DNA from: a phage
DNA length: 45,838 nucleotides
Strand: one strand, 5' to 3'
Assembly: GCA_014143165.1 (NCBI GenBank)
Contig: GCA_014143165.1_4843.1
This document shows positions 12,242-45,838 of this stretch, one piece after another (position 1 is the stretch's first letter; each line of letters starts with the position of its first letter). Under the pieces are notes generated by a model that had not been told where the DNA came from, made no database searches, and saw only the letters and a list, made by a program, of their open reading frames with translations. The position numbers were made by a program, and so were the translations under genes.

Positions 12242-12270
12242 TTGACGTAGATTGACGTAGCGTTTATAGT
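12242..12270 (+). promoter_or_regulatory. Promoter TTGACG-17-TATAGT with tandem TTGACGTAG repeats
   Basis: TTGACG at 12242-12247, 17-nt spacer, TATAGT at 12265-12270. The region contains GACGTAGATT (12244-12253), GACGTAGCGT and GATGTAGAAA (12275-12284). Confidence 0.55.
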
Positions 12271-12293: not shown

Positions 12294-12485
12294 ATGTTAG
12301 AGGTGATGAAAATGGAAGGTGAAACAGAAGTTTTTGCTGTTGATGTTTTTTATCAAGCATCAGACGAAGGCATTCCAGCTCACTGGTGCTGCCAGTTTAT
12401 TCGCGATGGATGGACTGGTTATGAATATTTTGATAACTCAGAAGATGCATATAACTATGCTTACTCACATGGATTTCAAGGATAA
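12294..12485 (+). CDS. Hypothetical protein
   Basis: 63-aa ORF. The start may be the ATG at 12306 or 12312, downstream of AGAGG. Confidence 0.5.
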   Translation: MLEVMKMEGETEVFAVDVFYQASDEGIPAHWCCQFIRDGWTGYEYFDNSEDAYNYAYSHGFQG

Positions 12486-12488
12486 ACA

Positions 12489-13298
12489 ATGAAAACACTC
12501 AGCAAAATATATTCAGACAAAGAAACGCGCAACGGCATCGCTGTTAACAAAACCTATCTCGTGCCAGTTGAGCAAATCTATCTGGAACCGGGCTACAACA
12601 TCCGTGAAGCAGATGAGCAGCATGTGGAATATTTCGCGCAGTGCTGGGAATCAGGTCAGCCACTGCCAGCATTAACAGTTATTCCTGACGAGAAGGGAAT
12701 CCGCATTCTTAATGGTCAGCATCGCTATCTCGGCGAATTGCGTGCCATTGAGCGTGGCGCGCCAATCGTTCGCATTGAGTGTAATGATTTTACAGGAGAC
12801 GAAGCAGATAAAATCGCCTTCATGGTGTCATCCAGTCAGGGTAAGCAGCTCGACCCGTTTGAGCGCGCAAAGGCTTACACGAGACTGAAAGGTTTTGGCT
12901 GGACGAATGAAGAAATCGCCAAAAAGGTAGGCCGCTCAGTATCTGATGTGCAAATGCATCTGTCACTGGGTGATGTTCCAGCGGAAGTGAAAGCGCGCAT
13001 CAGTGCAGGACAAATCAGCTATGCAAATGCCGTAGCGGTAACGCGCGAGCATGGTGATGATGCGGCTAAAGTTATCGACGAGGCAGTCGAAGAGGCCAAA
13101 GCACAAGGCAAAGACAAGGTCACAGCGAAAGTACTGAAGGCGAAAAAGATTAAGCCAGTAGACCGCCTGATTGAGTTATTGAAGCCAGCCGACCATGTGA
13201 TTCTCCCCGCTGGTCATGTGGTGGCAGAGGATGAGGAATTTATCCAGATTCCTGTCGCAGACATTCACGAGGTTATGGCAATTCTGGAGAAGATGTGA
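12489..13298 (+). CDS. ParB-like nuclease-domain / HTH DNA-binding protein
   Basis: 269 aa. The ParB N-terminal domain signature is present (ILNGQHRYLGELRA), followed by an HTH-like WTNEEIAKKVGRSVSDVQ. Confidence 0.8.
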   Translation: MKTLSKIYSDKETRNGIAVNKTYLVPVEQIYLEPGYNIREADEQHVEYFAQCWESGQPLPALTVIPDEKGIRILNGQHRYLGELRAIERGAPIVRIECNDFTGDEADKIAFMVSSSQGKQLDPFERAKAYTRLKGFGWTNEEIAKKVGRSVSDVQMHLSLGDVPAEVKARISAGQISYANAVAVTREHGDDAAKVIDEAVEEAKAQGKDKVTAKVLKAKKIKPVDRLIELLKPADHVILPAGHVVAEDEEFIQIPVADIHEVMAILEKM

Positions 13299-14095
13299 TG
13301 ATAGTCCACTACTACAATGAGTGGGACAAGGGCGCAGCGGCATGGCTGCGCGAATTAATTAACAATAAACTAATTCCTTACGGATATGTCGATGAGCGAT
13401 CAATTACCGAAGTCACCCCTTCAGACCTGGAAGGATTTACACAATGTCACTTCTTTGCCGGAATCGGAGGGTGGCCCCTTGCACTCCAGCTGGCAGGAAT
13501 ACCAGAGAGCACTCGACTCTGGACAGGATCACCACCTTGCCAGCCGTTTAGCGTTGCCGGTCAGTCTCGCGGATTTGATGACGAACGACACCTTGCCCCT
13601 GTATTTCTCCGGCTCATCAGAGAGTGCAAACCTGAATTGCTATTTGGAGAGCAGGTTGCGGCAGCAATTGCAAAGCACTGGCTCGACTTTGTATTCCTTA
13701 ACCTGGAAGAAAAAGGCTACACCTGCGGGGCGGCAGTATTGCCAGCTTGCAGCGTCGGCTCTCCACAGGAAAGGAAAAGAACCATCTTTGGCGCGAGGAT
13801 GGGCGACACCAACAGCGCGAGGATGGAAGGATTATGGGAATCTCAGCAAGTCATTTTACAGAAAGGACGGAAAATTCAGGAACGATACTCTTTATCGCCA
13901 GATGTGGCTTCATGTTTATGGGATTCATGGAAACCCAAACATGGAGCAGATAAAGAAACTAGAGTCATACCAGGCGGATTTTGCGAGGCAACTCATGGGG
14001 TATCCGCAAGAGTGGGACGACTGCGCGGTTATGGCAATGCCATAGTTCCACAAGTCGCAGCAGAATTCATTAAAGCATTCATGAGGTCCGTTTAA
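13295..14095 (+). CDS. DNA (cytosine-5) methyltransferase, short-TRD phage type
   Basis: Motif I FFAGIGGW, motif IV SPPCQPFS, motif VI-like FGEQV, motif VIII SPQERKRTIF, motif X GNAIVPQVA, preceded by GVSARVGRLRGY as in phage Dcm-like enzymes. Confidence 0.85.
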   Translation: MMIVHYYNEWDKGAAAWLRELINNKLIPYGYVDERSITEVTPSDLEGFTQCHFFAGIGGWPLALQLAGIPESTRLWTGSPPCQPFSVAGQSRGFDDERHLAPVFLRLIRECKPELLFGEQVAAAIAKHWLDFVFLNLEEKGYTCGAAVLPACSVGSPQERKRTIFGARMGDTNSARMEGLWESQQVILQKGRKIQERYSLSPDVASCLWDSWKPKHGADKETRVIPGGFCEATHGVSARVGRLRGYGNAIVPQVAAEFIKAFMRSV

Positions 14096-14268
14096 TGACA
14101 CCAGAACAATTCATCGAAAAACAACTACGCGCCAAACTGCCGGACATCGACCAGATGGCAATTGATGCGGCAATTCAGTATTACAAGCGCAATCAGAGCG
14201 AAAAGAAGGGTGGCATTTTTGAAGAGTGCCTGAAGGTTGCAAAACAACACATGATTAAGGTGAAGTGA
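14095..14268 (+). CDS. Hypothetical small protein (57 aa)
   Basis: Hand-translated: MTPEQFIEKQLRAKLPDIDQMAIDAAIQYYKRNQSEKKGGIFEECLKVAKQHMIKVK. TAATG and TGATG overlaps with its neighbours. Confidence 0.5.
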   Translation: MTPEQFIEKQLRAKLPDIDQMAIDAAIQYYKRNQSEKKGGIFEECLKVAKQHMIKVK

Positions 14269-14807
14269 TGAAACTAAAAATCAGCAAATTATTACTTGAA
14301 TCAGCATTAATATTTCAGGCTCGCAACGATGTGCGGTATTACCTGAATGGAATCTGCTTCATGCCTGATGGTCGCATTGCATCAACTGACGGTCATCGCG
14401 CATTTATTGGTGGCAACCATGACAATACGCTGACAGAAAATGTGATTATCAAGATTGGCAAGTCACCAACAAAGCGCTATGACTACGCCATCATTGATAC
14501 CAAAGCGAAAATTGCAACGTATCATGATGAAGCTGGTGTGATGGTTGGCACTGGTATCTGCGAAGAGATTGACGGACGATTCCCGGATATTGACCGCATC
14601 ATTCCGAAGCAGATCTCGCCAACAGAGGAAATTGGCTTCAATGCTGGCTATCTTGTTGATGTCGAGAAAGCTGCGAAGCTATTTAACCCTAGATTATGTG
14701 GAGTTAAGTTTGAATTGAATGGAAATACAAATGCCGCAGTTTGCTGCCTTAGTGCGCCAACTGGCGAAACTGCGAAGATTGTTGTTATGCCGATGAGGAT
14801 TTATTAA
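14268..14807 (+). CDS. Truncated DNA polymerase III beta-clamp (DnaN)-like protein
   Basis: 179 aa from the ATG at 14268. DVRYYLNG, STDGHRA, DGRFPDIDRIIP, EIGFNAGYLVDV and the C-terminal IVVMPMRIY match E. coli DnaN domain II and the C-terminal half of domain III (from memory of the DnaN sequence). Domain I and roughly 60 aa of domain III are absent. Confidence 0.75.
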   Translation: MKLKISKLLLESALIFQARNDVRYYLNGICFMPDGRIASTDGHRAFIGGNHDNTLTENVIIKIGKSPTKRYDYAIIDTKAKIATYHDEAGVMVGTGICEEIDGRFPDIDRIIPKQISPTEEIGFNAGYLVDVEKAAKLFNPRLCGVKFELNGNTNAAVCCLSAPTGETAKIVVMPMRIY

Positions 14808-15088
14808 TGAGTGAAGAGATGAAGCCATGCAGGCTTTGCGGAGTTAAGCAAAGCGGCGTCGATGAACATAATAATGAATACGAAAAACTTGTCAGCCTTG
14901 TTCTTCGTTCTGGAGACGAAAGAGAACTGCTTGAGTTGATTGACCTGATGAGAGGCAAAATAATAACGTCGGTAACAACATCAATTGGTAGCAGTAAGTT
15001 GGCATATGAAAGCCGCGAACTTTATCATGTTCAAGTCATGCATGACGCAATATCTTTACTGCGTGAAAAGCTAATTTCCAGACAGTAA
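14807..15088 (+). CDS. Hypothetical protein
   Basis: 93-aa ORF, ATGA-coupled to the DnaN-like gene. It has an N-terminal CRLCG motif. Confidence 0.5.
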   Translation: MSEEMKPCRLCGVKQSGVDEHNNEYEKLVSLVLRSGDERELLELIDLMRGKIITSVTTSIGSSKLAYESRELYHVQVMHDAISLLREKLISRQ

Positions 15089-15091
15089 ACC

Positions 15092-15119
15092 AAAGCCCCT
15101 TTACGGGGCTTTTCTTTTA
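15092..15119. terminator. Bidirectional intrinsic terminator
   Basis: AAAGCCCC-TTTAC-GGGGCTTT hairpin plus a T-run, between convergent genes ending at 15088 (+) and 15120 (-). Confidence 0.8.
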
Positions 15120-19104: not shown

Positions 19105-19113
19105 ATTATATCA
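19105..19113 (-). promoter_or_regulatory. Extended -10 promoter TGATATAAT (leftward, drives scaffold-capsid block)
   Basis: The reverse complement of 19105-19113 is TGATATAAT, 30 nt upstream of the ATG at 19075. It overlaps the ATG (19113) of the opposite-strand endonuclease-like gene. Confidence 0.55.
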
Positions 19114-20510
19114 TGCCGAAGAAGATGACTATTGATGAGCTCAAAGAAAAGATTCGTAGCGTTCATGGCGAGACGTATGAGTATGATTTTCATACCTTCC
19201 ATGGCTGCCACTCACCAATGAAAATAGTATGCAAAAAGCATGGGGAATTCTGGCAAAAGCCATCCAAACACCTTCATGGTCAGGGGTGTGCAAAGTGCCA
19301 AAGGGGCGTTATTTCTGTCGATGACTTCAAATCAATGGCCTCCGCTATTCATGACGGGAAATATGACTATAGCAAGGTTTTTTTTGAAGCGTTTTCAAGG
19401 GCAAAGATAACAATCGGATGCCCGATTCATGGGTGGTTTGAGCAATTGGCCTACATTCATCTGAAGAGGGGTAATGGATGCCCAAGGTGTGGAGATGAGA
19501 GATCGAGAAAAGCCAAGTTAAAAAAGTTCAGCAATTTTGTTGATGATGCGAAATACGTCCATGGTGATAAGTATGAGTATTCCCCGAATGGTTTTACTGG
19601 TTCTCGAGGCAAGATTAATATCTTATGTCCTACACATGGTGAGTTTACTCAAGGTGCCGCAAATCACCTGGCTGGTAATGGGTGCCCATCGTGCGCAAGA
19701 GTGATGTCAAACATAGAAGCCGATATCCTTGCATTTGTTAAGTCACTGGACCCACATGTGATCAGCAGGGATAGAGCAACGATAGCACCATATGAACTGG
19801 ATATAGTCTCAAGAGCAAAATCATTAGCCATAGAGGTAAACGGCACATACTGGCACTCGGAGAGGGCTGGGAAAGATAGGTTATATCACAAAATGAAAAG
19901 AGAGATGGTTGAAGAATCTGGGATGAGATTGATAAGCATAAGAAGTGATATATGGAGAGATAAGCGCGAATTAGTAGAGGAAATAATAATTAATGCCATG
20001 GGGGCATCTGAGAGCAGGAAGGTTGACGCAAGAAAGTGCACCATTAAAGATGTATCACCATCTGAATCAAGGGCTTTTCTTGATAGATACCATGTTATGG
20101 GAGGGAGGAATGCCAGTAGGCACTTCGGTTTATTTTGTGGCGGTGAACTGGTATCTGTTATGTCATTTACAGTAAGGAAAGGTTCTGTTGAGTTAGTTAG
20201 ATTCGCATCTAAATGCAATGTTCGTGGTGGGTTAACAAAGATGCTAAAACACTGCTCATCAGTTGTTGGTTTTGATAAGTGTTTCAGCTATGTAGACCTT
20301 GATTTGTTTACCGGTAAATCATACCTCTTAGCTGGCTTTAAAGCTGTAAGCATAAAACCCGGATTCGCGATTGTTAACGGAAATCATGTGGAATCAAGGC
20401 AAAAGTGGAATAAGGCACCTAATGGCATGACTCAGAGCGAATGGTACGAATCTGAAGGCGTAAGCAGGATATGGGATAGCGGACAAATGAGAATAGAGTG
20501 GAGTAAATAG
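19113..20510 (+). CDS. Homing-endonuclease-like protein (three Zn-ribbon repeats + Vsr/PD-(D/E)XK-like core + C-terminal domain)
   Basis: 465 aa. A module HG..Y.Y......I.C..HG.F.Q....HL.G.GC..C is repeated three times. It is followed by ELDIVSRAKSLAIEVNGTYWHSE (a Vsr/DUF559-like nuclease motif) and a ~170-aa C-terminal domain. This is a solitary plus-strand gene with its own terminator. Confidence 0.55.
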   Translation: MPKKMTIDELKEKIRSVHGETYEYDFHTFHGCHSPMKIVCKKHGEFWQKPSKHLHGQGCAKCQRGVISVDDFKSMASAIHDGKYDYSKVFFEAFSRAKITIGCPIHGWFEQLAYIHLKRGNGCPRCGDERSRKAKLKKFSNFVDDAKYVHGDKYEYSPNGFTGSRGKINILCPTHGEFTQGAANHLAGNGCPSCARVMSNIEADILAFVKSLDPHVISRDRATIAPYELDIVSRAKSLAIEVNGTYWHSERAGKDRLYHKMKREMVEESGMRLISIRSDIWRDKRELVEEIIINAMGASESRKVDARKCTIKDVSPSESRAFLDRYHVMGGRNASRHFGLFCGGELVSVMSFTVRKGSVELVRFASKCNVRGGLTKMLKHCSSVVGFDKCFSYVDLDLFTGKSYLLAGFKAVSIKPGFAIVNGNHVESRQKWNKAPNGMTQSEWYESEGVSRIWDSGQMRIEWSK

Positions 20511-22958: not shown

Positions 22959-23174
22959 ATGCCAAGACCACGACGCGAGCCGATGGACATTATCACCAGC
23001 ATTGTGGAGAAGCGGCAGCCGCTGACGCTCCGTGATGTTCGCTACTTTGCCCGTTGCTATGTGGCGCTGGCTGATATGTCTAAAAATGACATGTATGATT
23101 TAATTCGTGCCAACTTCAGTGTTGACGAGAATAACAAAGTCACAATAAAGGAGAGTGATGATGGATTGGAATGA
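22959..23174 (+). CDS. Hypothetical protein
   Basis: The ATG at 22959 (MPRPRREPMDII...) has AAGGAG 8 nt upstream. The track ORF starts earlier at 22923. Confidence 0.5.
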   Translation: MPRPRREPMDIITSIVEKRQPLTLRDVRYFARCYVALADMSKNDMYDLIRANFSVDENNKVTIKESDDGLE

Positions 23175-23643
23175 TGTGTTCGAATACCGTGATGGGTTGC
23201 TATATTGGAAGATAAAAACAAACAGAAACATGAAAATAGGGAGGATGGCAGGAAGCATGGCAGGTAATGGGTACATGCAGGTTCATTGCTTTGGAAAAGT
23301 GCGACTGATGCATAGAATAATTTGGGAAATGCACAATGGTGAGATACCGGAGGGGATGGAGATTGATCATATAAACCACATTCGTGATGATAATAGGATT
23401 GAGAATCTCAGATTGGTAAGCAGAAAGCAGAACGCCAAGAATCTTTCTATGCGATCTGATAACACGAGTAATGTTGTCGGAGTTAGTTGGGATAATAAGA
23501 GTAAGAAATGGTATGCAAAGATTGCCGTGAACGGAAAGCAGATTGCGCTTGGCAGATTCTCAAACTTGTCAATGGCTGCAGAGTGCAGAAAAGCAGCTGA
23601 GGAAAAATATTGTTTCCATAAAAATCACGGAGCATTAAAGTAA
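23155..23643 (+). CDS. HNH homing endonuclease with AP2-like DNA-binding domain
   Basis: 162 aa. The HNH_3-type core is present (GYMQV...HRIIWEMHNGEIPEGMEIDHINHIRDDNRIENLRLV), followed by GVSWDNKSKKWYAKIAVNGKQIALGRF..MAAECRKAAE (AP2 domain). Confidence 0.85.
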   Translation: MMMDWNDVFEYRDGLLYWKIKTNRNMKIGRMAGSMAGNGYMQVHCFGKVRLMHRIIWEMHNGEIPEGMEIDHINHIRDDNRIENLRLVSRKQNAKNLSMRSDNTSNVVGVSWDNKSKKWYAKIAVNGKQIALGRFSNLSMAAECRKAAEEKYCFHKNHGALK

Positions 23644-36878: not shown

Positions 36879-37312
36879 GGTGTTGGGATATGAAAAGGTA
36901 CTACATTGAGGCAGTTGGGCCTGATGGTAAAAAGGTGTATGCCAGCGGTAGATGTGGTTTTCTGCATGATTTTACCTATGCCAAGTTTTTCAAAACAATA
37001 GAGGAGGCTGAGAGGTATATGGCGTTGCGGAAGCCGCATCTCCCATGTGAAATAAAATGCAAGGAGCAAAGGGTAAAAAAACGGGCCGCGTCTGTGCGGG
37101 AGCAAAAACCGACAATGGAGGGAGAGGCTCGAAGCTTCGTCTACCGACTTGGTTTGGGTAAGGGAAAGCATTTTGTGTTTGATGATTTTGCGTTGATAAG
37201 GAGTATTGAGCAGTTGAGAATTGCGCTTTCCGTAGTTGGTAAGAAGCTGCAAAAAAAATTCAGTGTCAAGATGGTTGCACGTAATACCGCTTATGTGGTG
37301 AGGGTTAAATGA
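36875..37312 (+). CDS. Hypothetical basic protein
   Basis: 145-aa ORF, coupled to its neighbours by overlapping start/stop codons. Confidence 0.55.
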   Translation: MRCWDMKRYYIEAVGPDGKKVYASGRCGFLHDFTYAKFFKTIEEAERYMALRKPHLPCEIKCKEQRVKKRAASVREQKPTMEGEARSFVYRLGLGKGKHFVFDDFALIRSIEQLRIALSVVGKKLQKKFSVKMVARNTAYVVRVK

Positions 37313-39642
37313 TGATTGGTTATGAAGATTACCGCAAATGTGGCTTCCCTATTATTGGAATCCATGCAATGGATATCGACCGCAATTGCACATGCGGTGA
37401 TCCAGAGTGCAATGCTGCTGGTAAGCATCCGGTTATGAGTAACTGGCAGCTTGGAGTTATATGGGCTGATGACCAGATTGAAAATATGGCTGAATATGGT
37501 CAACTGCAGTCATTCGGTGTCCTTGTGAATGGTTATCTGGTCGTTGATATTGATCCACGCAACGGAGGTAATGATGGATATGAATCTCTTTGTGATGCCT
37601 TAGACGTAGAGCTTGCTGACGAAGCTGGTTTTACGGTTAAGACTGGCGGTGGTGGTCGGCACATCTATTACAAACTTCCTGAAGGAATAAAGCTGCGCTC
37701 TCATGACAGAAGGTTTAAGGGTATTGACTTTAAATCATCTGGTTTTGTTGTTGGCTGTGGTTCTTTTCATAAAACCGGAAACTTTTATGAGGCCGAGCAT
37801 GGATCCCCTTCAGAGATAACTGAATGTCCATCTGAACTTATTGAGCTTTTGTTGCGCCCTGAGAGAACAGAAGACGAGGTTTTCACGCTTGATAGTAAAA
37901 ATTACAGCATTGCCGAAATGGAGGATATGCTCAAATACATCAAAGATGGTGATGAGTATGACCCATGGCTTCATGTAGGTATGGCTATCCACGAAGCTAC
38001 AGAAGGCAATGGTTTTGAGCTTTGGGATAGATGGTCATCGCAGTTCAGCAAATACAGAGCTGAAGAGATGGACGCAAAATGGCACTCCTTTGGAAAGGAC
38101 GGCGTTAGCGAAAAGATAACCGAAGCAACGCTGGTTTATCTCGCGCAAGAGGGAGGGTGGGTAAGGCAAGTAACTTTTGAGGCTACTCCAGAGGAAATTG
38201 AGAAACTTGAGTCTTTCGAGCGAGAGATGGCAATGGGTGTTGGGGAATGCCCTGTAGAGTACAAAAGTGTTGATGTCCGTTATCCCCCTGGATTTGTTGG
38301 TCGCCTTACGGCGTGGATTAATAAGAACTGTGCAGAGAAGCGAGAGAATATTGCAGCACTTGCTGCATTGCACGCTGCATCCATGATTTGCGGTGCGTCA
38401 TCTGATATTTACCTTACAAACAGGAAGGCTTTGCCAAACCTGTTTGCTGTTGGTATAGCTGGTTCAGGTTCTGGTAAGGGTGATGTTCTTGCTGCGCTAC
38501 AAAAGATAATTGATTGCTCAGGATTGAGCAAGACTGTCGCCGGTAAGATACGTTCAGAGCGTGCGATATATGAAGGTCTTTGCGCTAACCAGATGTTTAA
38601 TATCATCATGGATGAGATTGGGATAAAACTTGGGAGTGTTGTTGGTCAGAAAGTAAGCGAGTACAACATGGCAACCGCTGGTGCGATCATGGAGGCTTAC
38701 ACGTCAGAAGTTCTTTATTGTGACCAGCGGGTTACTGAGGATTTCATTAAGTCTTTCGAAAAAAGAAAGGCTATGCTGTTAATGGCTATTGAGGAAAATG
38801 AGATACAGGCAGACCCCGTAGACATTAAGTGTCAGTTTGATGATGTGATAAACAGAATTGACGGAGCTATAAGGAATCCATTTTTTTCAATCTTTGGTGT
38901 GTCTACTGATGATCAGTTTAAGCGACTTATCACTGAAGAAAACATTAAGTCAGGTCTTATGGGTCGCGCAATGATTATGCAGGAGTTACAGGAGATTGCT
39001 GACGAAAACGAAAACGTAAACTACTGTGATCTACCTATGGATATGCAACTGACCATAAAAACAATAATAAATGGCGGAACGGCTGGGCACAAAAACTGGA
39101 CAGACTCAATAATCAGTCAAAAAGAAAGACGGATTATAAAAGCTACGCCTGAAGTTTCTCAGCTCGCTAAAGAGTTCTTCTCATGGATTAAAACCGTTGC
39201 AAGAAAGCATGTAGAAAATGGTACTGGTTATCACCCATTGATAAACAGATGCGCCGTGAAGGTGGCAAAGATTGCTGGCATTCTCGCGTGCGATACTGGC
39301 GTCATAACCATGGAGCACTTGAGATATGCGGTAGCATTAACAATTAAATCAACAAGCGATCTGATGATGCGTGCTGACAGTATCGCCGGAGCGAAGTCTA
39401 AAGCTATGGAAGAAAGAATTGAAGGTATTTTCTCCATGGTTAAAGAATATGTTAAGCGTGGAATGACCAAAACAGCAATGGTTAGAGGGGTAGCAAAAGA
39501 AGGTGGGTATAAACGTGCTGATGTCGAGAGGTGCGTAGAGAAGTTGTTATCAGATGGTATTATTTGCATTGATGAAAATGCAAAAAGAACATCTCACAAC
39601 GTAATAATTTACAAATTAACAAATGATGAGGTTGAGATATGA
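37309..39642 (+). CDS. Bifunctional primase-polymerase / SF3 (D5-like) helicase
   Basis: 777 aa. The N-terminal prim-pol-like region (GYLVVDIDPRNGG ... GGGGRHIYY) is followed by a PriCT-like middle region (YDPWLHVGMAIH ... WDRWS) and a C-terminal P-loop (GIAGSGSGKGDV) with Walker B IIMDEIG. Confidence 0.8.
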   Translation: MMIGYEDYRKCGFPIIGIHAMDIDRNCTCGDPECNAAGKHPVMSNWQLGVIWADDQIENMAEYGQLQSFGVLVNGYLVVDIDPRNGGNDGYESLCDALDVELADEAGFTVKTGGGGRHIYYKLPEGIKLRSHDRRFKGIDFKSSGFVVGCGSFHKTGNFYEAEHGSPSEITECPSELIELLLRPERTEDEVFTLDSKNYSIAEMEDMLKYIKDGDEYDPWLHVGMAIHEATEGNGFELWDRWSSQFSKYRAEEMDAKWHSFGKDGVSEKITEATLVYLAQEGGWVRQVTFEATPEEIEKLESFEREMAMGVGECPVEYKSVDVRYPPGFVGRLTAWINKNCAEKRENIAALAALHAASMICGASSDIYLTNRKALPNLFAVGIAGSGSGKGDVLAALQKIIDCSGLSKTVAGKIRSERAIYEGLCANQMFNIIMDEIGIKLGSVVGQKVSEYNMATAGAIMEAYTSEVLYCDQRVTEDFIKSFEKRKAMLLMAIEENEIQADPVDIKCQFDDVINRIDGAIRNPFFSIFGVSTDDQFKRLITEENIKSGLMGRAMIMQELQEIADENENVNYCDLPMDMQLTIKTIINGGTAGHKNWTDSIISQKERRIIKATPEVSQLAKEFFSWIKTVARKHVENGTGYHPLINRCAVKVAKIAGILACDTGVITMEHLRYAVALTIKSTSDLMMRADSIAGAKSKAMEERIEGIFSMVKEYVKRGMTKTAMVRGVAKEGGYKRADVERCVEKLLSDGIICIDENAKRTSHNVIIYKLTNDEVEI

Positions 39643-40034
39643 TTAATTACAAGTATCTGGTGATGAGAGGTTTGTATGACTATTTTGAGTCAGAAAATCC
39701 TGAGCGCGCACATGATAACGCAATATCCATGATGACAGGAAAGCACCTGATGGAAGTTTACTACTGGAAAATGCCTGTATTCCGCTGCAATATGGGTATC
39801 TGCATTGATGATGACGTACTGTTTTGTCGAATACAATATGAAAACAATGTTGGCATAGTGACAGCATCGTACAGGGATGTTGCAAGAAAATCCGGGAACT
39901 GGCATCCAAGCGAAGTATTTGCTGGTGACGCACTATTTAATTTCTGTAAGGCGTTTGGTGTTTTGTATGAGGATGTAAGCAAAGAGTATAGCGGAAGGCG
40001 TGAGAAAGATAGCTTAAGCTCAAAAGGAGCATAA
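39639..40034 (+). CDS. Hypothetical protein
   Basis: 131-aa ORF, ATGA-coupled to the primase gene. Confidence 0.55.
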   Translation: MINYKYLVMRGLYDYFESENPERAHDNAISMMTGKHLMEVYYWKMPVFRCNMGICIDDDVLFCRIQYENNVGIVTASYRDVARKSGNWHPSEVFAGDALFNFCKAFGVLYEDVSKEYSGRREKDSLSSKGA

Positions 40035-40035
40035 C

Positions 40036-40062
40036 AAAAAGCCCGCAAACGCGGGCTTTATT
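40036..40062. terminator. Bidirectional intrinsic terminator
   Basis: AAAGCCCGC-AAAC-GCGGGCTTT is flanked by A-runs and T-runs. It lies between convergent genes. Confidence 0.8.
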
Positions 40063-40303
40063 ATTTAACAATCCATTTTGTAACAGCTGGCCTTAAATCT
40101 TCCTTTCTGAAAAATCCACCAGTAAGTTTCTCGGCATCAATTGCTGCTGTAGCGCTAATTCTTCCTCTTGACACCCACTGATTGACAGCCTGTTTTGACA
40201 CACCAAGAAACCTTGCCAGTTGTGATTGCCCTCCAACATAATCAATCAGCTCTGACAGCTTCGTCTGTTCCATTTCTCTTATCTGTTCTGCGATGCTTTT
40301 CAT
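40061..40303 (-). CDS. Cro / YdaS-like HTH transcriptional regulator
   Basis: The ATG at 40303 (MKSIAEQIREMEQTKLSELIDYVGGQSQLARFLGVSKQAVNQWVSRGRIS...) has GAGGT upstream. It carries a classical HTH with the QAV.QW signature of the Cro/YdaS family. Confidence 0.7.
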   Translation of the reverse strand: MKSIAEQIREMEQTKLSELIDYVGGQSQLARFLGVSKQAVNQWVSRGRISATAAIDAEKLTGGFFRKEDLRPAVTKWIVK

Positions 40304-40332
40304 GTGTTTACCTCTGCTATCTGTATGCAGCA

Positions 40333-40394
40333 ATAATGAACTCAAAAAAAATTTTCGTCAAGGTATTGCGTTTACCATCACGTTGACGTATCTT
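40333..40394. promoter_or_regulatory. Divergent promoters (leftward TTGACG-17-CATTAT; rightward TTGCGT-17-TATCTT)
   Basis: Minus strand: TTGACG (40356-40361) and CATTAT (40333-40338). Plus strand: TTGCGT (40366-40371) and TATCTT (40389-40394). Confidence 0.45.
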
Positions 40395-40437
40395 TAAGTC
40401 ACACCAGCGATATGCTGAGTTAAATCGAGAGGACACT

Positions 40438-41280
40438 ATGAGCTTATCAATGATTCAAAAACCAAAACCAGCAGCGCCAATCATAACATTGGTTGGTACT
40501 CCAGGTGTAGGCAAGACAACTCTTGCGGCGCTATTCCCAAACCCAGTGTTTATTCAGGCTGAAGAGATCACTGGTGTTTTTGATGACTGGGATGATGAAA
40601 AGAAACCTGATTCATTTCCTGTTCTGAAGCGCGCTGACGCTAAACGCAAAACAAGCACAAAGGATGATTTGCTGTCACAGCTACGCGCATTAATTACTGA
40701 GGAACATAATTACAAAACGCTTGTAATTGACTCAATCACAAGCCTGCATTCAATGTTTGAGCATGAGGTTTGTGAAAATTACGGTGTTGACAACGTTGGT
40801 TCTGCGGCTGGTGGTTACAACAAAGGATATATTGTTGTTTCTGAAATGCACGCTGAAATAATAAATGCATGTAAGTATCTTCGCAAAGAAAAAGGGATGA
40901 GCATTATTTATCTTGCGCACGCAGGTGTTAAAAAGATGAAGAATCGCCCTGATGCTGATGAATACACTGTTTACACACTTGACATGCATGATGCTTCTGT
41001 TTCTGGTTATGTGAATCTTAGTGATGCTGTTATTTACATCAGGAATGAGGAGTTTGTGAAAGGTACTGAAACTGATAAAAAAGGTCAGGTAACTAAGTTT
41101 GGTAAAGTTGTTCAGACTGGTCAGCGAGTTCTTATTACCTCTGGTGATGGTCGCATTGGGTATGTTAATGCTAAAAACAGATACAACCTTGAGCCTGAAA
41201 TTCCTTTTGAAAAAGGTGAGAACCCGCTTTTGAGTGAGATTAAATATTATGCATCTCTACGAGATAACCAAACAGCTTAA
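40438..41280 (+). CDS. Sak4-like RecA-fold ATPase (AAA_24 family)
   Basis: 280 aa. Walker A LVGTPGVGKTTLA is present. Gene context (Gp157 and a DUF669-type SSB downstream) is the typical Sak4 recombination module. Confidence 0.7.
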   Translation: MSLSMIQKPKPAAPIITLVGTPGVGKTTLAALFPNPVFIQAEEITGVFDDWDDEKKPDSFPVLKRADAKRKTSTKDDLLSQLRALITEEHNYKTLVIDSITSLHSMFEHEVCENYGVDNVGSAAGGYNKGYIVVSEMHAEIINACKYLRKEKGMSIIYLAHAGVKKMKNRPDADEYTVYTLDMHDASVSGYVNLSDAVIYIRNEEFVKGTETDKKGQVTKFGKVVQTGQRVLITSGDGRIGYVNAKNRYNLEPEIPFEKGENPLLSEIKYYASLRDNQTA

Positions 41281-41728
41281 TGAACTGCTGGCGATGGAGG
41301 ATATTCCACGAGAGCAGATTGAAGATACTATAAACCTTATTGAAGAGGAGTTTGAAGGAAAGGCTGAAATGGTTGCTGCTTACATTCGTGAGCTTGAAGC
41401 TGATGAGGCCGGACTGAATTCTGAGATTGACCGACTTTCTGAGCGTAAGCGTGTTTTAGTTTCGAAGATTGATAATCTTAAGGATTATCTTCGTCAGAAC
41501 ATGATGGCTTCAGGAAAGACGAACATCAAAGGTAAGTTGTTCAGTATCACGCTTGGCAAACCATCACCAGTTCTTGATGTGTTTGTTCCTGTTGAGCAGC
41601 TTCCTGAGCAGTACCGTGTTGTGAAAGTGTCGGCAGATAACGCAGCGATTAAAAATGCGATTAAAGCCGGGATTGAAATTAATGGTTGTGCCATCACCGA
41701 CGGCAAACCGAAACTGATCATCAAATAA
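41249..41728 (+). CDS. Siphovirus Gp157-family protein
   Basis: ATG at 41249 (MHLYEITKQLNELLAMED...); the coiled-coil N-terminal half is typical of Gp157. The track ORF starts at a GTG at 41234. Confidence 0.65.
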   Translation: MHLYEITKQLNELLAMEDIPREQIEDTINLIEEEFEGKAEMVAAYIRELEADEAGLNSEIDRLSERKRVLVSKIDNLKDYLRQNMMASGKTNIKGKLFSITLGKPSPVLDVFVPVEQLPEQYRVVKVSADNAAIKNAIKAGIEINGCAITDGKPKLIIK

Positions 41729-41744
41729 TCGAGAGGACACAAAA

Positions 41745-42266
41745 ATGGGTTTCTGGAATCTTTCTGACGGTAAAGCTGTTGAATCTAAATCTGAATTTGA
41801 GCTGGGTGGTGGTTTCGAAGTAATTCCTGATGGTAGCCGTGTTCTTGCTGCCGTTGAAGAATGTAAAGACGACCAGTGGGAAGGTGAGCGATTCTTCAAT
41901 CTTAAGTGGAGAATCCTTGAGGGTGAATATAAAAATCGCATCATCTTCCAGAAGCTGAAAGTATTTAGCTCTAAAGAAAAGCAGCGAGACAATGCTATCA
42001 CTATGCTTGCAGCAATTGACGCAAACGCTGGTGGAAAGCTGATGGCATCAGGAAAAGAGCCGACTGATTTTGCTATTGCCAGTGCGCTTGCGAATCGCCC
42101 GATGATTCTTCTTCTGCGCGTTTGGGAATCTGAGGATAAGCAAAAAACTGGTAACTATGTGGCTGGTGTATTTGGTCGTCAACAGACAAAAGCAGCACCT
42201 GCTACTAAGCAGTCAGCGCCGTCTAACGAGCCGCCGATGGACTTTGATGATGACATTCCGTTCTGA
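41745..42266 (+). CDS. DUF669-type single-strand-binding-like protein carrying a bacterial SSB C-terminal tip
   Basis: 173 aa. The C-terminus, APSNEPPMDFDDDIPF, reproduces the E. coli SSB acidic tip. The body does not look like a canonical OB-fold SSB, but its position after Sak4/Gp157 fits the cognate DUF669 partner. Confidence 0.65.
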   Translation: MGFWNLSDGKAVESKSEFELGGGFEVIPDGSRVLAAVEECKDDQWEGERFFNLKWRILEGEYKNRIIFQKLKVFSSKEKQRDNAITMLAAIDANAGGKLMASGKEPTDFAIASALANRPMILLLRVWESEDKQKTGNYVAGVFGRQQTKAAPATKQSAPSNEPPMDFDDDIPF

Positions 42267-42288
42267 TGATTTGATGTTTGTTTAAATG

Positions 42289-42313
42289 AAGCCCCGTTAA
42301 GGGGCTTTTAATT
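42289..42313 (+). terminator. Hairpin / partial terminator
   Basis: AAGCCCC-GTTAA-GGGGCTT followed by TTAATT. It lies immediately before the next SD, so it is probably an attenuating or stabilising hairpin. Confidence 0.5.
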
Positions 42314-42323
42314 GGAGTTTTAT

Positions 42324-42701
42324 ATGTACGAAGTTATCTGTGATTACTGCAATATTGCAACAAGACTAGCTAAAGGGAGTGAAATTTACCCGCACAGACA
42401 AGATCTTTATGCGCTTAATTTCTATCTGTGCGATTCCTGTGGTGCTTATGTTGGTTGCCATAAAAATGGTGATGGAAAAAGGCCTCTTGGAAGGGTAGCA
42501 AATGAAGAATTAAGGAAGGCAAAAAGCAAAGCACATGCTGCATTTGATCCTCTATGGAAATCAGGAAAAATGTCGCGAGGTGCTGCTTACTCTGCATTAG
42601 CTAGTTCGATGGCAATAAAAAAAGATAAATGCCACATAGGAATGTTTGATGTTAAACAATGCGAGTATGTTGTCGAGTGGTGCAAGGAGTTTTGTTTATG
42701 A
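42324..42701 (+). CDS. DUF3268-like zinc-finger protein
   Basis: The ATG at 42324 has GGAG 6 nt upstream. CDYC...IYPHR.DL....FY.CD.CGAYVGCH......PLGRVAN.ELR.AK..AH..FD.LW matches the DUF3268 pattern. Confidence 0.6.
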   Translation: MYEVICDYCNIATRLAKGSEIYPHRQDLYALNFYLCDSCGAYVGCHKNGDGKRPLGRVANEELRKAKSKAHAAFDPLWKSGKMSRGAAYSALASSMAIKKDKCHIGMFDVKQCEYVVEWCKEFCL

Positions 42702-44563
42702 AATATACGCTAAGGCCATACCAACAAGAAGCTGTGGATTCAGCTATGGCACACATTCGCAGCACCATCTCCTCATGCGTTATCATCCTCCCGACAGGTG
42801 CAGGAAAATCTATGGTTGTGGCAGAACTTGCATCTCGTATTTATGGTATGAGCAAAAAGCGAGTTTTGTGTATTGCTCCCACAGCGGAACTCGTCACACA
42901 AAATCGCGCTAAATATCTTCTTACTGGAGAGCCAGCCAGCATGTTCAGTGCGAAGGCCGGACCAAAGAACCTGCGCCATCCGGTTGTTTTTGGCTCACCA
43001 GTTACAATCAAGAACTCAATAGAGATGTTTGGTGATAAGTATGGTGCTGTCATTATTGATGAGTGTGATGGAATAACACCAACCATTAAATTTATTATTA
43101 ATGAGATGAAGCGCCGAAATCCAAAGCTGCGTGTTATTGGGATGACCGCTACGCCTTATCGCCTTGGAACTGGATACATCTACAAAGAGCACTACCTAGA
43201 CGGTCCTACAGATGAAGAAACAGCCATAGACCCATATTACGACAAAGTCGTTTATGAGCTTGAAGCTAAATTTCTCATCGAAAATGGATATCTTACGCCA
43301 CCAGTTACAGATCCTGTTTTTGACGAGTATGATACGTCTTGTCTTGAAAAGGATAAGTTAGGTCGGTACACAACAGCTTCAGTTGAAAAGGCGATGGTTG
43401 GCAAGGGGAGGAAAACATCACGCATTGTTGAAGATATTATCCGTCGCTCTGTTAATCGGCGCGGAACGATGATTTTTGCCAGCACCAAGAAGCACGCTAT
43501 GGAGATAATGGAGTCGCTTCCTCCAGGTTCTTATAGCTATGTTTTTGGTGATATGCCAACATCAGATCGCAACAAGGCAATATCAGACTTCAAGTCGCAA
43601 AAAGTTAAATACATCGTCAACCAGAATATCCTTACTGTAGGGGTGGATGTTCCTCATTGTGATCACATAGCAGTAATGAGAGCCACAGAATCACCAAGAC
43701 TGTACCAGCAAATAATTGGCAGGGGGACGCGTCTTTATGAAGGTAAGCAAGACTTTCTTGTCAGCGATTACGCAGGCAATATTCAGCGACACTTTTCTGA
43801 GACCGGGGACTTGTTCACTCCAGAAATAAAAGCAACAAGGAAAAAACCATCAGTCCCAATGGATGTTAAATGCCCGTTATGTGGATTTATCAATGAATTT
43901 GGTGTGCGTCCTAATCCTGAAAATCTTGAAGTTGACAAGGAAGGTTACTGGCTTGATTTGGCTGGTGACAGAGTGATGATTGATATTTTTGATAAGTCAG
44001 GTGAAAAAATTGGAAGCAAACCTATGCCTGCTCATTTTGGCAGAAGATGTAAAAACTACGTTATGCAAGGTCCACTAAGAGAAATGCACAGATGTACTTA
44101 TAAATGGTCGGTAAAAGAGTGTCCTGATTGCGGGTTTGAAAATGATATAGCGGCAAGAAACTGCACATCATGCGGCGCTGAAATCATTGACCCAAACCAA
44201 AAGCTAAAGGAAGAAGCTGACAGGCTTGATTCTTCTCCTTATGCAACCAAGCAATCAAGCGTAACCATGATGAACATCATGAAGCATTACGTTTCAAGCG
44301 GTGAAGATTTGGTGCACGTAAAATTTGCTATTGAACAGAAACCATTTTTTGTTAGCAAGTTCTACAATCCAAACTCTGAGAAGGAATGGATGAAGAAGGA
44401 GTGGGAAGAGTTTTGTGAGAAGTGCTTTGGTGAATCCGACATGTCAATTGATGACGCAATAGCAAAAAGAGATGAGGCTGTCGCGCCATCAGTGATTATG
44501 TTCAGAAGAGATAAGGGTAGTAAATATTTCAACGTTAAAGGCATGTATTGGGGGGTATTATGA
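42698..44563 (+). CDS. SF2 DEAD/DEAH-box helicase with C-terminal zinc ribbons
   Basis: ATG at 42698 (AAGGAG upstream). Motif I LPTGAGKS, motif II IIDECD, motif III MTATP, motif VI QQIIGRGTR. The C-terminal part carries CPLCG, CPDCG and CTSCG ribbons. Confidence 0.85.
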   Translation: MKYTLRPYQQEAVDSAMAHIRSTISSCVIILPTGAGKSMVVAELASRIYGMSKKRVLCIAPTAELVTQNRAKYLLTGEPASMFSAKAGPKNLRHPVVFGSPVTIKNSIEMFGDKYGAVIIDECDGITPTIKFIINEMKRRNPKLRVIGMTATPYRLGTGYIYKEHYLDGPTDEETAIDPYYDKVVYELEAKFLIENGYLTPPVTDPVFDEYDTSCLEKDKLGRYTTASVEKAMVGKGRKTSRIVEDIIRRSVNRRGTMIFASTKKHAMEIMESLPPGSYSYVFGDMPTSDRNKAISDFKSQKVKYIVNQNILTVGVDVPHCDHIAVMRATESPRLYQQIIGRGTRLYEGKQDFLVSDYAGNIQRHFSETGDLFTPEIKATRKKPSVPMDVKCPLCGFINEFGVRPNPENLEVDKEGYWLDLAGDRVMIDIFDKSGEKIGSKPMPAHFGRRCKNYVMQGPLREMHRCTYKWSVKECPDCGFENDIAARNCTSCGAEIIDPNQKLKEEADRLDSSPYATKQSSVTMMNIMKHYVSSGEDLVHVKFAIEQKPFFVSKFYNPNSEKEWMKKEWEEFCEKCFGESDMSIDDAIAKRDEAVAPSVIMFRRDKGSKYFNVKGMYWGVL

Positions 44564-45015
44564 TTTTTCCAGAAGGCGTTAAGGTATATGGCGATTTAGA
44601 TTACAGAAACAAAAAGTGCCCGTCAGAAGATGCTGAGCTGGAGACTTTTGTTAATCAGATAAGGAAGCTATATCCTGACTTTGCAAGAGTTATGATTCAT
44701 GTGCCAAATGAAGGAAAGCGTAAAGGGTATGAAGTTGAAAACCTGAAGAAAAAGGGCGCGTTAAACTTCGGCGCCTCGGACATCATTATCGTCGGAAAGC
44801 AATCATTTGTTATGGAGATGAAAAGAATGGATCATACTTTATCAAAATGGCAGCCAGGTCAAATGGCATACCTCAAGGCTGCAAAAGAATTAGACTCCTT
44901 CGCGTGTGTATGCCTCGGTTGGGAAGCGGCGATGATGGCATTTAACGACTGGAGAGCAATAAATTACCCAAACTATAAAAAACCATCAGAGCCATTGATA
45001 TTTGATGGTTTTTAG
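44560..45015 (+). CDS. VRR-NUC domain nuclease
   Basis: The ATG at 44560 overlaps the helicase stop (ATGA). GASDIIIVG...FVMEMKR......Q..Y matches the D..(E/Q)xK VRR-NUC core. It ends at TAG 45013-45015. Confidence 0.8.
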   Translation: MIFPEGVKVYGDLDYRNKKCPSEDAELETFVNQIRKLYPDFARVMIHVPNEGKRKGYEVENLKKKGALNFGASDIIIVGKQSFVMEMKRMDHTLSKWQPGQMAYLKAAKELDSFACVCLGWEAAMMAFNDWRAINYPNYKKPSEPLIFDGF

Positions 45016-45132
45016 CAACCACGCCAGCAATCAGGCCAACAACCGCAACGACAACAACAGCCACCAAAACAACAAAGCCCACAAGGAGGGAATGAGCCTC
45101 CTATGGACTTCGATGATTCAATACCCTTCTGA
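45016..45132 (+). other. In-frame post-stop extension encoding an SSB-type disordered linker plus acidic tip
   Basis: The 38 codons directly after the VRR-NUC TAG, in the same frame, read QPRQQSGQQPQRQQQPPKQQSPQGGNEPPMDFDDSIPF followed by TGA (45130-45132). There is no usable internal start and no SD. Confidence 0.6.
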
Positions 45133-45142
45133 TGATAAAACT

Positions 45143-45168
45143 AACCCCGCCGAAGCGGGGTTTTGTTT
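45143..45168. terminator. Bidirectional intrinsic terminator
   Basis: AACCCCGC-CGAA-GCGGGGTT followed by TTGTTTATT. It lies between convergent genes. Confidence 0.8.
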
Positions 45169-45169
45169 A

Positions 45170-45838
45170 TTACTTCTGTTCAAGAGCAGAAAGTCTGGCT
45201 TCGATTCTTTCCAGTTTTCTTCGCTGATAAGCAGCTTCAGCAAAGAAAATTCCGTCAGGCCGAACACCCCATTCCTCACCCTCTTCGTGAATAACCACCT
45301 CGGTGTATACAGGTTCTTCCGTGGTAGTGACATTACCCTCATCGTCAGTGTGTTCAACGATTTCATTGTGCGAAAATACCATATCGGTAAACCGTGGATA
45401 CTTGTCATAGCACAGAACGGCATAACGACAATCCGTACTGTTTTCGTCCATCAGACCATGTGCAATGAATACATCACGAATTTGCTGAGCAATAACCCCG
45501 AAGTGAATACGAGCATCATTGCCTTTCAGTTGAACAGCATCTAACCACTGGTACATGATGTAGTGAACGTCACCCCAGGCATCCAGGAAAGCATCATCAA
45601 AAACTACCGGCTCTGTCTTTAATGTTCCGTCACTGGTAACCACAGGATTGGAGCCAAGATAAACTGTCGAGAACCTGTTTCTCGGACCACCAAGAGCATT
45701 TACATTATCACGATAAGGTTTAACATCTCCGTTCTCAAAAAGATGTTCGAGTGCGTTATATACCGCGCGACGTGGAGTACTGCTTCCGGAACCATGCAAC
45801 GTTATCATTGCACCATCTGCTGAAGACGTTGTTTCACC
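45170..45838 (-). CDS. Tail fibre / tailspike C-terminal end with intramolecular chaperone (peptidase S74-like) domain (partial)
   Basis: The reading frame is open to the window end, so the first Met of the track ORF is not the true start. RFSTVYLGS.PVVTSDG..K ... ARIHFGVIAQQIRDVF..HGL.......YAVLCYDKY ... a terminal coiled coil ending ..RLSALEQK is the pattern of endosialidase / L-shaped-fibre auto-cleaving chaperone domains. Confidence 0.75.
   Translation of the reverse strand, partial: GETTSSADGAMITLHGSGSSTPRRAVYNALEHLFENGDVKPYRDNVNALGGPRNRFSTVYLGSNPVVTSDGTLKTEPVVFDDAFLDAWGDVHYIMYQWLDAVQLKGNDARIHFGVIAQQIRDVFIAHGLMDENSTDCRYAVLCYDKYPRFTDMVFSHNEIVEHTDDEGNVTTTEEPVYTEVVIHEEGEEWGVRPDGIFFAEAAYQRRKLERIEARLSALEQK

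Follow-up and report, generated by a model that had tools for sequence, protein, structure and literature searches.

The question raised by this locus is what a phage might do with a relative of the bacterial beta sliding clamp (DnaN) that has kept the predicted docking cleft for clamp-binding motifs (CBMs) and has lost the parts that close the ring. In bacterial replication and repair, the cleft of the beta clamp serves as the central docking site, and its value as a target of antibiotics has been validated (griselimycin and mycoplanecin). The gene was found in a 45,838-nt stretch of phage DNA (the window, here always meaning the whole stretch that was analysed), which represents a Jersey/Skate-like siphovirus sharing ~92% identity with Escherichia phage ZCEC08 and with Salmonella phage ST1UNAM. 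Its ORF spans 14268-14807 on the plus strand, with an alternative GTG start at 14265, and encodes a 179-aa product that we refer to as the mini-clamp.

Genetic setting and relationship to DnaN

The mini-clamp gene belongs to a cassette on the plus strand, whereas the head and tail genes around it are on the minus strand. Read from its 5' end, the cassette encodes a 63-aa protein of unknown function (phrog_37822; 12294..12485), a ParB-like DNA-binding protein (HTH_ParB/KorB; 12489..13298), a C5 cytosine DNA methyltransferase (PF00145; 13298..14095), a 57-aa protein (phrog_4439; 14095..14268), the mini-clamp, and a 93-aa protein without a family match (14807..15088), for which no counterpart is annotated at that position in ST1UNAM. 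At four successive junctions the stop and start codons overlap by 1 nt (TGATG or TAATG) and are preceded by purine-rich tracts, and the TGATG overlap at the end of the 57-aa ORF couples its translation to that of the mini-clamp. The cassette is closed by a strong hairpin (AAAGCCCC-loop-GGGGCTTT, then a T-run; 15092..15112), an intrinsic terminator for both directions, and a sigma-70-like sequence (TTGACG-17-TATAGT, 10/12; 12242..12270 on the plus strand) lies upstream of it; the count of such sites was not above that in shuffles, and it is the position of this one that argues for it as the putative cassette promoter. The mini-clamp gene is part of a small operon that is complete in itself and runs against the structural genes on either side, and the single operon with a ParB-like protein and a C5 methyltransferase described in the first-pass annotation is real and translationally coupled. 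The methyltransferase, however, is a variable passenger rather than a fixed part of the cassette: it is absent in seszw, ZCKP8 and pIS4-A, where ParB, the small ORF and the mini-clamp persist, while the ParB-like gene is a conserved neighbour in Guernseyvirinae-like phages. Membership in a defence system was also considered and rejected, as the mini-clamp and its small neighbours had no match among the PADLOC models, the methyltransferase matched generic MTase models only, and the context was not defence-related.

When the mini-clamp was compared with PDB sequences by phmmer, all matches were beta sliding clamps (best E=1.3e-13), with residues 7-115 aligning to E. coli beta 136-250 (domain II) and residues 116-178 aligning to beta 310-366, and a profile built from the mini-clamp family matched E. 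coli beta at E=2e-31. In a global alignment 63 of the 140 aligned positions were identical; the E. coli beta sequence used there agrees in its length (366 aa) and its segments with those printed by phmmer. The similarity to beta clamps is far above chance. The DnaN-like blocks quoted in the first-pass annotation were all reproduced by phmmer and the global alignment: DVRYYLNG is identical to beta 150-157, and TDGHR, DGRFPD, EIGFN and VVMPMR match beta 172-176, 238-243, 316-320 and 360-365, respectively. The curated profile HMMs were matched only below threshold (PF02767, 17.1 bits; PF02768, 16.4 bits; curated cut-off 27 for both); TIGR00663 scored 32.2 bits against a cut-off of 137.65, and PF00712 gave no match. 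With these sub-threshold scores, the mini-clamp is a homologue of DnaN but not a bona fide DnaN.

Domain I of beta has no counterpart in the mini-clamp. The spacing between the equivalents of P249 and N320 is 11 aa as compared to 70 aa in E. coli beta, so that ~59 residues of domain III are gone, in agreement with the ~60 residues of its first half that had been reported missing; the second helix of domain II (beta ~197-207), whose loss had been overlooked, is also deleted in the subfamily of the window. Residues 1-113 (14268..14606, plus strand) are the counterpart of domain II (beta ~130-249) and carry the pocket residues R23, Y24, Y25, L26, T40, G42, H43, R44, A45, P106, R110 and I111. The linker KQISPTE (14607..14627, plus strand) replaces the ~59 domain III residues, among them I272, L273, E298 and E300, and residues 121-179 with the stop codon (14628..14807, plus strand) form the pocket-proximal part of domain III, in which a helix (126-139) carries N125 and Y128 and the C-terminal strand V172-I178 matches beta V360-L366. 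Because domain III is internally pseudo-symmetric, HMMER can alternatively place residues 116-153 on its first half (beta 252-288), a register in which I272 falls on a lysine; judged by the pocket motifs FN..Y and MPMR, the C-terminal half is the better placement.

Structure prediction bore out the DnaN-like fold. The AF2 model, computed from a 124-sequence alignment, had a pLDDT of 95.4 and a pTM of 0.90 and contained the processivity (clamp) fold of the individual domains, and in a Foldseek search its top 50 PDB matches were bacterial beta clamps, mostly from E. coli (probability 1.0, TMq up to 0.69, alignments across ~257 clamp columns). Just two long helices per chain were modelled (7-16 and 126-139), compared to six per beta chain, so that most of the channel-lining helices have been lost. 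The beta dimer is held together by I78 and F106 of domain I with I272 and L273 of domain III and by ion pairs to E298 and E300 (PMC11139829). This head-to-tail interface is absent from the mini-clamp, since domain I is gone and beta 250-315 is replaced by the 7-residue linker. As both halves of the interface are lost, closure of a beta-type ring is ruled out, as had been proposed, and capping of host beta through the canonical interface, which had been offered as one possible activity, is likewise excluded. The missing pieces were not found elsewhere: tblastn of E. coli beta, of domain I and of the missing domain III piece against the window returned only the mini-clamp ORF itself. The scan of window ORFs gave no match to a clamp loader.

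A conserved family with a constrained cleft

The truncation is shared by a large family. By tblastn the mini-clamp was detected in 289 phage records, 278 of them at a coverage of at least 80%, with identities down to 27%; a search of 5.8 billion proteins returned 765 matching clusters, and an exhaustive search of 50%-identity cluster representatives gave 1,799 matches at E<=1e-3, the best 150 of which were all <=250 aa. In an alignment of 124 members (159-236 aa in length, spanning members down to 20% identity), the linker that replaces part of domain III was 9-18 aa in every member, as compared to 70 aa in E. coli beta; with its 11-aa linker and 179 aa, the mini-clamp fits the fixed truncation of this family (length ~160-240 aa). 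It also matched phrog_3007 at E=1.6e-62, residues 1-178 covering profile positions 1-186 of 190, and many phage entries in the BFVD have this compact fold (TM 0.8-0.89). The mini-clamp differs from its phrog_3007 relatives in having no domain II helix 2 at all and no C-terminal tail, a tail that 76% of the family carries; a long-form relative (P0267, pLDDT 94.1) was modelled with a vestigial 4-residue helix where domain II helix 2 stood and with an ordered C-terminal tail. The subfamily of the window is the shortest form of the family. The short phage proteins annotated as 'DNA polymerase III beta subunit' (Bcep781 gp15, seszw gene 16, TheodorHerzl gp07 and the one in Pantoea phage LIET2) share the architecture and fold of the mini-clamp. 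Purifying selection was indicated by dN/dS values of 0.06-0.15 among four orthologs. The family is already known as phrog_3007, with the truncation noted for Bcep781 gp15, and it is large, conserved and uncharacterised; no functional or structural study of it was found in the searchable full-text literature. The mini-clamp is a member of this uncharacterised family, a variant of the sliding clamp.

The cleft was evaluated with the pocket definition of a review, in which subsite I comprises R152, L155, T172, G174, H175, R176, L177, P242, R246, V247, V360 and M362, and subsite II comprises H175, N320, Y323, V344, M362, P363, M364 and R365 (PMC11139829). Ten of the 12 residues of subsite I are identical between the mini-clamp and E. 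coli beta (the changes are L177A and V247I), as are seven of the eight of subsite II, where V344 could not be mapped reliably; in total, 15 of 18 pocket residues are the same. Across the 124-member alignment, the mean frequency of the top residue was 0.77 at pocket positions and 0.37 at the others (Mann-Whitney p=2e-8). The ten most conserved columns were T40, L26, G42, R23, Y25, P106, G103, D107, R110 and M174, eight of which are in or next to the pocket while the remaining two belong to the same loop. In the family consensus, it is the N-terminal strand that varies. The cleft is the most strongly constrained part of the family, and these results uphold the 'pocket-only' anatomy of the first-pass annotation. 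Part of this signal could reflect folding constraints, since the pocket residues are among the most conserved in DnaN generally. Overall, the residues retained predict that a CBM cleft is present in the mini-clamp. The closest PDB match of a member from a Burkholderia phage was also E. coli beta; given the uneven coverage of hosts in the PDB, this comparison is uninformative as to whether the pocket tracks the host.

Replication context and dispensability in seszw

In keeping with the earlier description of the window as devoid of a DNA polymerase, no family A, B or C polymerase was found in it, and its replication module consists of a PrimPol-PriCT2-DUF3987 helicase, an AAA_24 ATPase, Gp157, a DUF669 protein and an SF2 helicase. 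The first-pass annotation had linked the mini-clamp to the dependence of such a phage on the host replisome. This link is not supported, as Bcep781 (gp62), TheodorHerzl (gp41) and an Achromobacter temperate phage carry their own PolA in addition to a member of the family. In the Achromobacter phage the gene lies directly downstream of PolA, in a lambdoid prophage between cII and O-like/DnaC-like genes, in Citrobacter and other prophages in an early operon with the repressor on one side and the integrase on the other, and in Bcep781 and TheodorHerzl within the head module, where it stands alone on the opposite strand; members in temperate phages are located in early, replication or recombination regions. 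The family thus represents an early or DNA-metabolism accessory gene, found both in phages with a polymerase of their own and in phages without one. None of the phage-encoded neighbours recurs in all lineages. The search for a phage-encoded CBM as the cognate ligand also gave a negative result, as CBM-like motifs were not enriched in the 81 window ORFs (4 observed as compared to 4.6 +/- 2.4) and none was present in three phage PolA proteins. Two single candidates were discarded: QMHLSL in the ParB-like protein lies inside its ParB HTH domain match (residues 120-202) and probably occurs by chance, and nothing supports QLALL, close to the N-terminus of the primase of Bcep781, as a CBM. Since no phage partner is conserved across lineages and CBMs are not enriched, a partner common to all carriers would most plausibly be host-encoded.

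Genetic evidence on the requirement for the gene is available for one phage. In successive rounds, Yuan et al. (NAR 2022) removed genes from Salmonella phage seszw, and they deposited the genomes of the mutants, a gene being classed as non-essential when it was absent from isolated mutants (PMC9825161); we inferred the essentiality class of the mini-clamp from these deposited genomes. Gene 16 of seszw, which has no annotated polymerase, encodes a mini-clamp 91.5% identical to the window protein. At an identity of at least 99%, 72 records contained the essential coat gene and 47 contained that of the mini-clamp, which was missing from ~25 of ~67 seszw-derived genomes. In seszw_180S, seszw_290S and seszw_300L.2, genes 16 and 17 are deleted and the ParB-like gene 18 is kept, as checked in the deposited genomes, and the counterpart of the 57-aa ORF was co-deleted with the mini-clamp in seszw mutants. 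The genome of seszw_300L.2 (36,655 bp) matches the smallest mutant, seszw_300L, a large-plaque and genetically stable isolate (PMC9825161). The burst size of 300L fell from 140 to 37 (PMC9825161), a reduction that is not assignable to the mini-clamp because 20% of the 300L genome is missing. Phages without the mini-clamp are thus viable, and the gene is dispensable for laboratory growth of this one phage. As these mutants are viable without gene 16 and no polymerase is annotated in seszw, the mini-clamp is neither an obligatory bridge to the host replisome nor an essential component of the replisome.

Possible roles of the mini-clamp

We propose that the mini-clamp is a stand-alone, non-ring derivative of beta whose CBM cleft would be built from domain II together with the part of domain III next to the pocket, and that it would mimic host beta in trans as a soluble protein. 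The cleft would be offered to CBM-bearing host proteins, candidates being the clamp-loader delta subunit, Hda, MutS/MutL, Pol II/IV/V and Pol III alpha/epsilon, and clamp-dependent DNA transactions would be diverted or modulated during infection. That a soluble mimic of host beta competes for such proteins has, in our estimate, about an even chance of being correct, and the mini-clamp is probably an accessory host-manipulation or fitness factor rather than a part of the replication machine. A naturally short clamp is known in E. coli, where beta*, an internal product of dnaN, comprises domains II-III. Work by Skaliter and Livneh in 1996 is said to have found that beta* oligomerises and stimulates Pol III. 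Beta* lacks domain I like the mini-clamp but keeps the whole of domain III, whereas the mini-clamp lacks its ring-closing half. The nearest laboratory analogue of the possible role is the monomeric beta mutant I272A/L273A (PDB 1JQJ/1JQL), which likewise forms no ring and has an accessible cleft, although it is an engineered full-length protein of three domains and the mini-clamp is a natural 1.5-domain version. This mutant binds delta ~50-fold tighter than dimeric beta does and supports no processive synthesis (PMC11139829), and it is this tighter binding by a monomer that makes the mimic reading plausible. Compared to E. coli beta itself (PDB 1MMI, 2POL), the mini-clamp is alike in the sequence and fold of domain II and C-terminal domain III, with a cleft almost identical residue for residue, but it has 179 aa and two helices in place of 366 aa and six long helices per chain, and neither domain I nor the ring-closing interface.

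Several phage strategies are also centred on the clamp as a hub, including the clamp inhibitor gp168 of Twort (PDB 7EVP), MuC of phage Mu (PMC12867686) and gp45 in T4 late transcription (PMC2988020). These systems bind or use the clamp of the host or of the phage, whereas the mini-clamp would imitate it and target its partners, and there is no relationship to them in sequence or fold. The herpesvirus processivity factors HSV UL42 and HCMV UL44, which form no ring either, consist of two full domains, bind DNA through a basic face and work with a viral polymerase dedicated to them; none of these features is evident in the mini-clamp. If a cleft distilled into a ~20 kDa soluble, non-ring protein proves true, it would constitute an undescribed viral way to disturb or protect clamp-dependent transactions, in which the hub is mimicked rather than bound, and it would provide a minimal natural scaffold for studies of CBM recognition and for ligand screening without a ring; its importance is tempered by the accessory nature of the gene in seszw, the sole phage in which loss has been observed.

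Three points speak against mimicry in its simplest form. Lambdoid carriers and those that lack a polymerase need Pol III alpha and delta, and a trap for CBMs in general would compete for these as well, so that selectivity or a low dosage must be assumed. The C-terminal tail present in most of the family, ordered in the long-form model, could occupy or regulate the cleft, which complicates the picture of a simple decoy. Finally, the adjacency to PolA or an O-like initiator in some phages hints at a positive role in replication. In such a role, a phage ParB-like protein, PrimPol-helicase, PolA or O-like initiator would hold the mini-clamp, whose cleft would bring host enzymes with a CBM (Pol III core, Pol I, ligase, clamp loader) to the DNA of the phage. 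This adaptor would account for the gene directly 3' of PolA in the Achromobacter phage, its position between cII and O-like/DnaC-like genes in the lambdoid prophage and its translational coupling in the ParB operon of the window, and it would suit the window phage, which has PrimPol only and no replicative polymerase. However, the gene is dispensable precisely in seszw, where the need of host Pol III should be greatest, and seszw mutants keep the ParB-like gene while losing the mini-clamp; neither the neighbours, none of them conserved across lineages, nor the phage proteins, with no CBM in PolA and no enrichment in the proteome, point to a holder. We therefore regard the adaptor as unlikely.

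Target mimicry, in which a free copy of the docking cleft absorbs host clamp partners or else clamp-plugging toxins or defence effectors, was judged quite unlikely; if true, the first option would be a novel form of host takeover and the second a novel class of decoys against defence. In the latter option, the free cleft would soak up lethal effectors, of the host or of a competitor, that plug the beta-clamp pocket (SocB-type or other clamp-targeting toxins) and would thereby shield replication. Clamp-targeting toxin systems exist (e.g. PMC12795458), and an anti-defence function would explain the conservation of the gene in nature, its occurrence whatever the replication strategy of the phage, its dispensability on a single laboratory host and the strict conservation of the pocket. 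Against it, PADLOC gave neither a match nor a defence-related context, clamp-targeting defence in enterobacterial hosts was not found in the literature searched, and the argument is purely inferential; we consider it very unlikely.

Very little credence is given to a novel oligomeric clamp acting as a processivity factor, in which each chain would contribute three of 12 wedge units to a four-chain ring or two half-domain IIIs would pair to restore one domain. Such pairing is geometrically conceivable, given the pseudo-twofold symmetry of clamp domains, and one lineage places the gene beside PolA. However, each chain has just two long helices, which leaves little of the channel lining, the pI is near-neutral (7.6; family median 6.9), the conserved columns cluster at the cleft and not on the variable N-terminal strand, no clamp loader was found among the window ORFs scanned, the phage PolA proteins lack a CBM, and seszw grows without the gene.

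The readings suggested by existing labels, a decayed remnant of a full-length phage dnaN (GenBank describes Bcep781 gp15 as 'DNA Pol III b subunit fragment') or a RusA-like resolvase (the label of phrog_3007), can be dismissed, the former by the dN/dS of 0.06-0.15, truncation boundaries identical in 124 members down to 20% identity and a pLDDT of 95, and the latter by the clamp fold, the absence of a RusA (PF05866) match in Pfam even at E<=10 and the separate genuine RusA, gp22, of Bcep781. The phrog_3007 name in PHROGs, 'RusA-like Holliday junction resolvase', is wrong and has spread through RefSeq; with 'DNA polymerase' and 'DNA polymerase III beta subunit' it makes three names on this gene in hundreds of phage genomes, an annotation error to be corrected.

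Family naming, C-terminal tail and pocket variation

The profile phrog_3007, the family to which the product of window 14268-14807 belongs, carries the label 'RusA-like Holliday junction resolvase', a name that has been passed on to RefSeq phage records such as NC_054651, NC_054637 and NC_071150. The same gene is named 'DNA polymerase' or 'DNA polymerase III beta subunit' in other records. A RusA identity was rejected for the mini-clamp, the half-sized non-ring DnaN relative encoded there, since the protein showed no RusA similarity and its fold is that of a beta-clamp; the RusA-like label on phrog_3007 is a spreading annotation error.

In the family alignment (A1), 94 of the 124 members (76%) carried a C-terminal tail of at least 8 aa beyond the MPxR strand, and P-x-W/F patterns were frequent in these tails. 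The tail of P0267, a long-form member, was predicted by AF2 to be ordered at residues ~188-205 (model madc92a78297e; pLDDT of 85-90). The window mini-clamp has no such tail. Because the C-terminus of beta sits in the cleft, the family tail could fill or regulate the pocket, the groove in which clamp-binding motifs dock. The pocket position equivalent to R152 of E. coli beta was Arg in 122 of the 124 members. The ortholog of Salmonella phage ST1UNAM (L001:22718-23254) has DVSYYLNG, with Ser at this position, which could reflect either natural variation in the pocket or a mistake in sequencing.

In three phages that carry the mini-clamp, the PolA proteins (L007:5820-7934, L005:28123-30090 and L006:16622-18913) have in common a C-terminal W-x-x-G/D-x-P-L-x-A-x-G pattern. 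This pattern bears a loose likeness to the P-G-L-P-x-W tails of long-form mini-clamps, a likeness whose meaning may be nil.

Placement of the mini-clamp and its cassette neighbours

The mini-clamp lies, as a lone gene or in a small cassette, on the strand opposite to the flanking head-morphogenesis genes in three phage lineages that are not related to one another: Bcep781 gp15 (L003:7998-8579), TheodorHerzl gp07 (L004:7992-8510) and the window cassette (12294-15088). Within the ParB/mini-clamp cassette, comparison with loci L016, L017 and L018 indicated that the C5 methyltransferase (window 13298-14095) is a variable insert; the window and ST1UNAM carry it, seszw and pIS4-A lack it, and ZCKP8 has a small, unrelated ORF in its place. 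Residues 155-160 of the ParB-like protein (window 12489-13298), QMHLSL, match the hexameric clamp-binding-motif consensus. This match is probably coincidental, since the ParB HTH domain match (residues 120-202) encloses it and such motifs occur across the phage proteome no more often than chance predicts.

Mosaic modules, prophage decay and probably inserted ORFs

Close relatives differ in a mosaic fashion in their replication and recombination modules (window 37309-45544 compared with L001/L002 and L023). The window module encodes a PrimPol-D5-like helicase, AAA_24 (Sak4-like), Gp157, DUF669 and an SF2 helicase; in ST1UNAM and seszw their place is taken by a separate primase and helicases, together with a set made up of a recombinase, an exonuclease and an SSB. 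Downstream of an intact mini-clamp ORF, the lambdoid prophage of Symbiopectobacterium, a decaying prophage of an insect symbiont, has its O-like initiator and DnaC-like loader broken into fragments (L010:8537-10249, L011:7683-9225).

Endonuclease signatures mark two plus-strand ORFs that lie among the minus-strand structural genes of the window, one with DUF723 and REase_MTES_1575 matches (19113-20510) and the other with HNH_3 plus AP2 (23155-23643); both are likely homing-endonuclease insertions.
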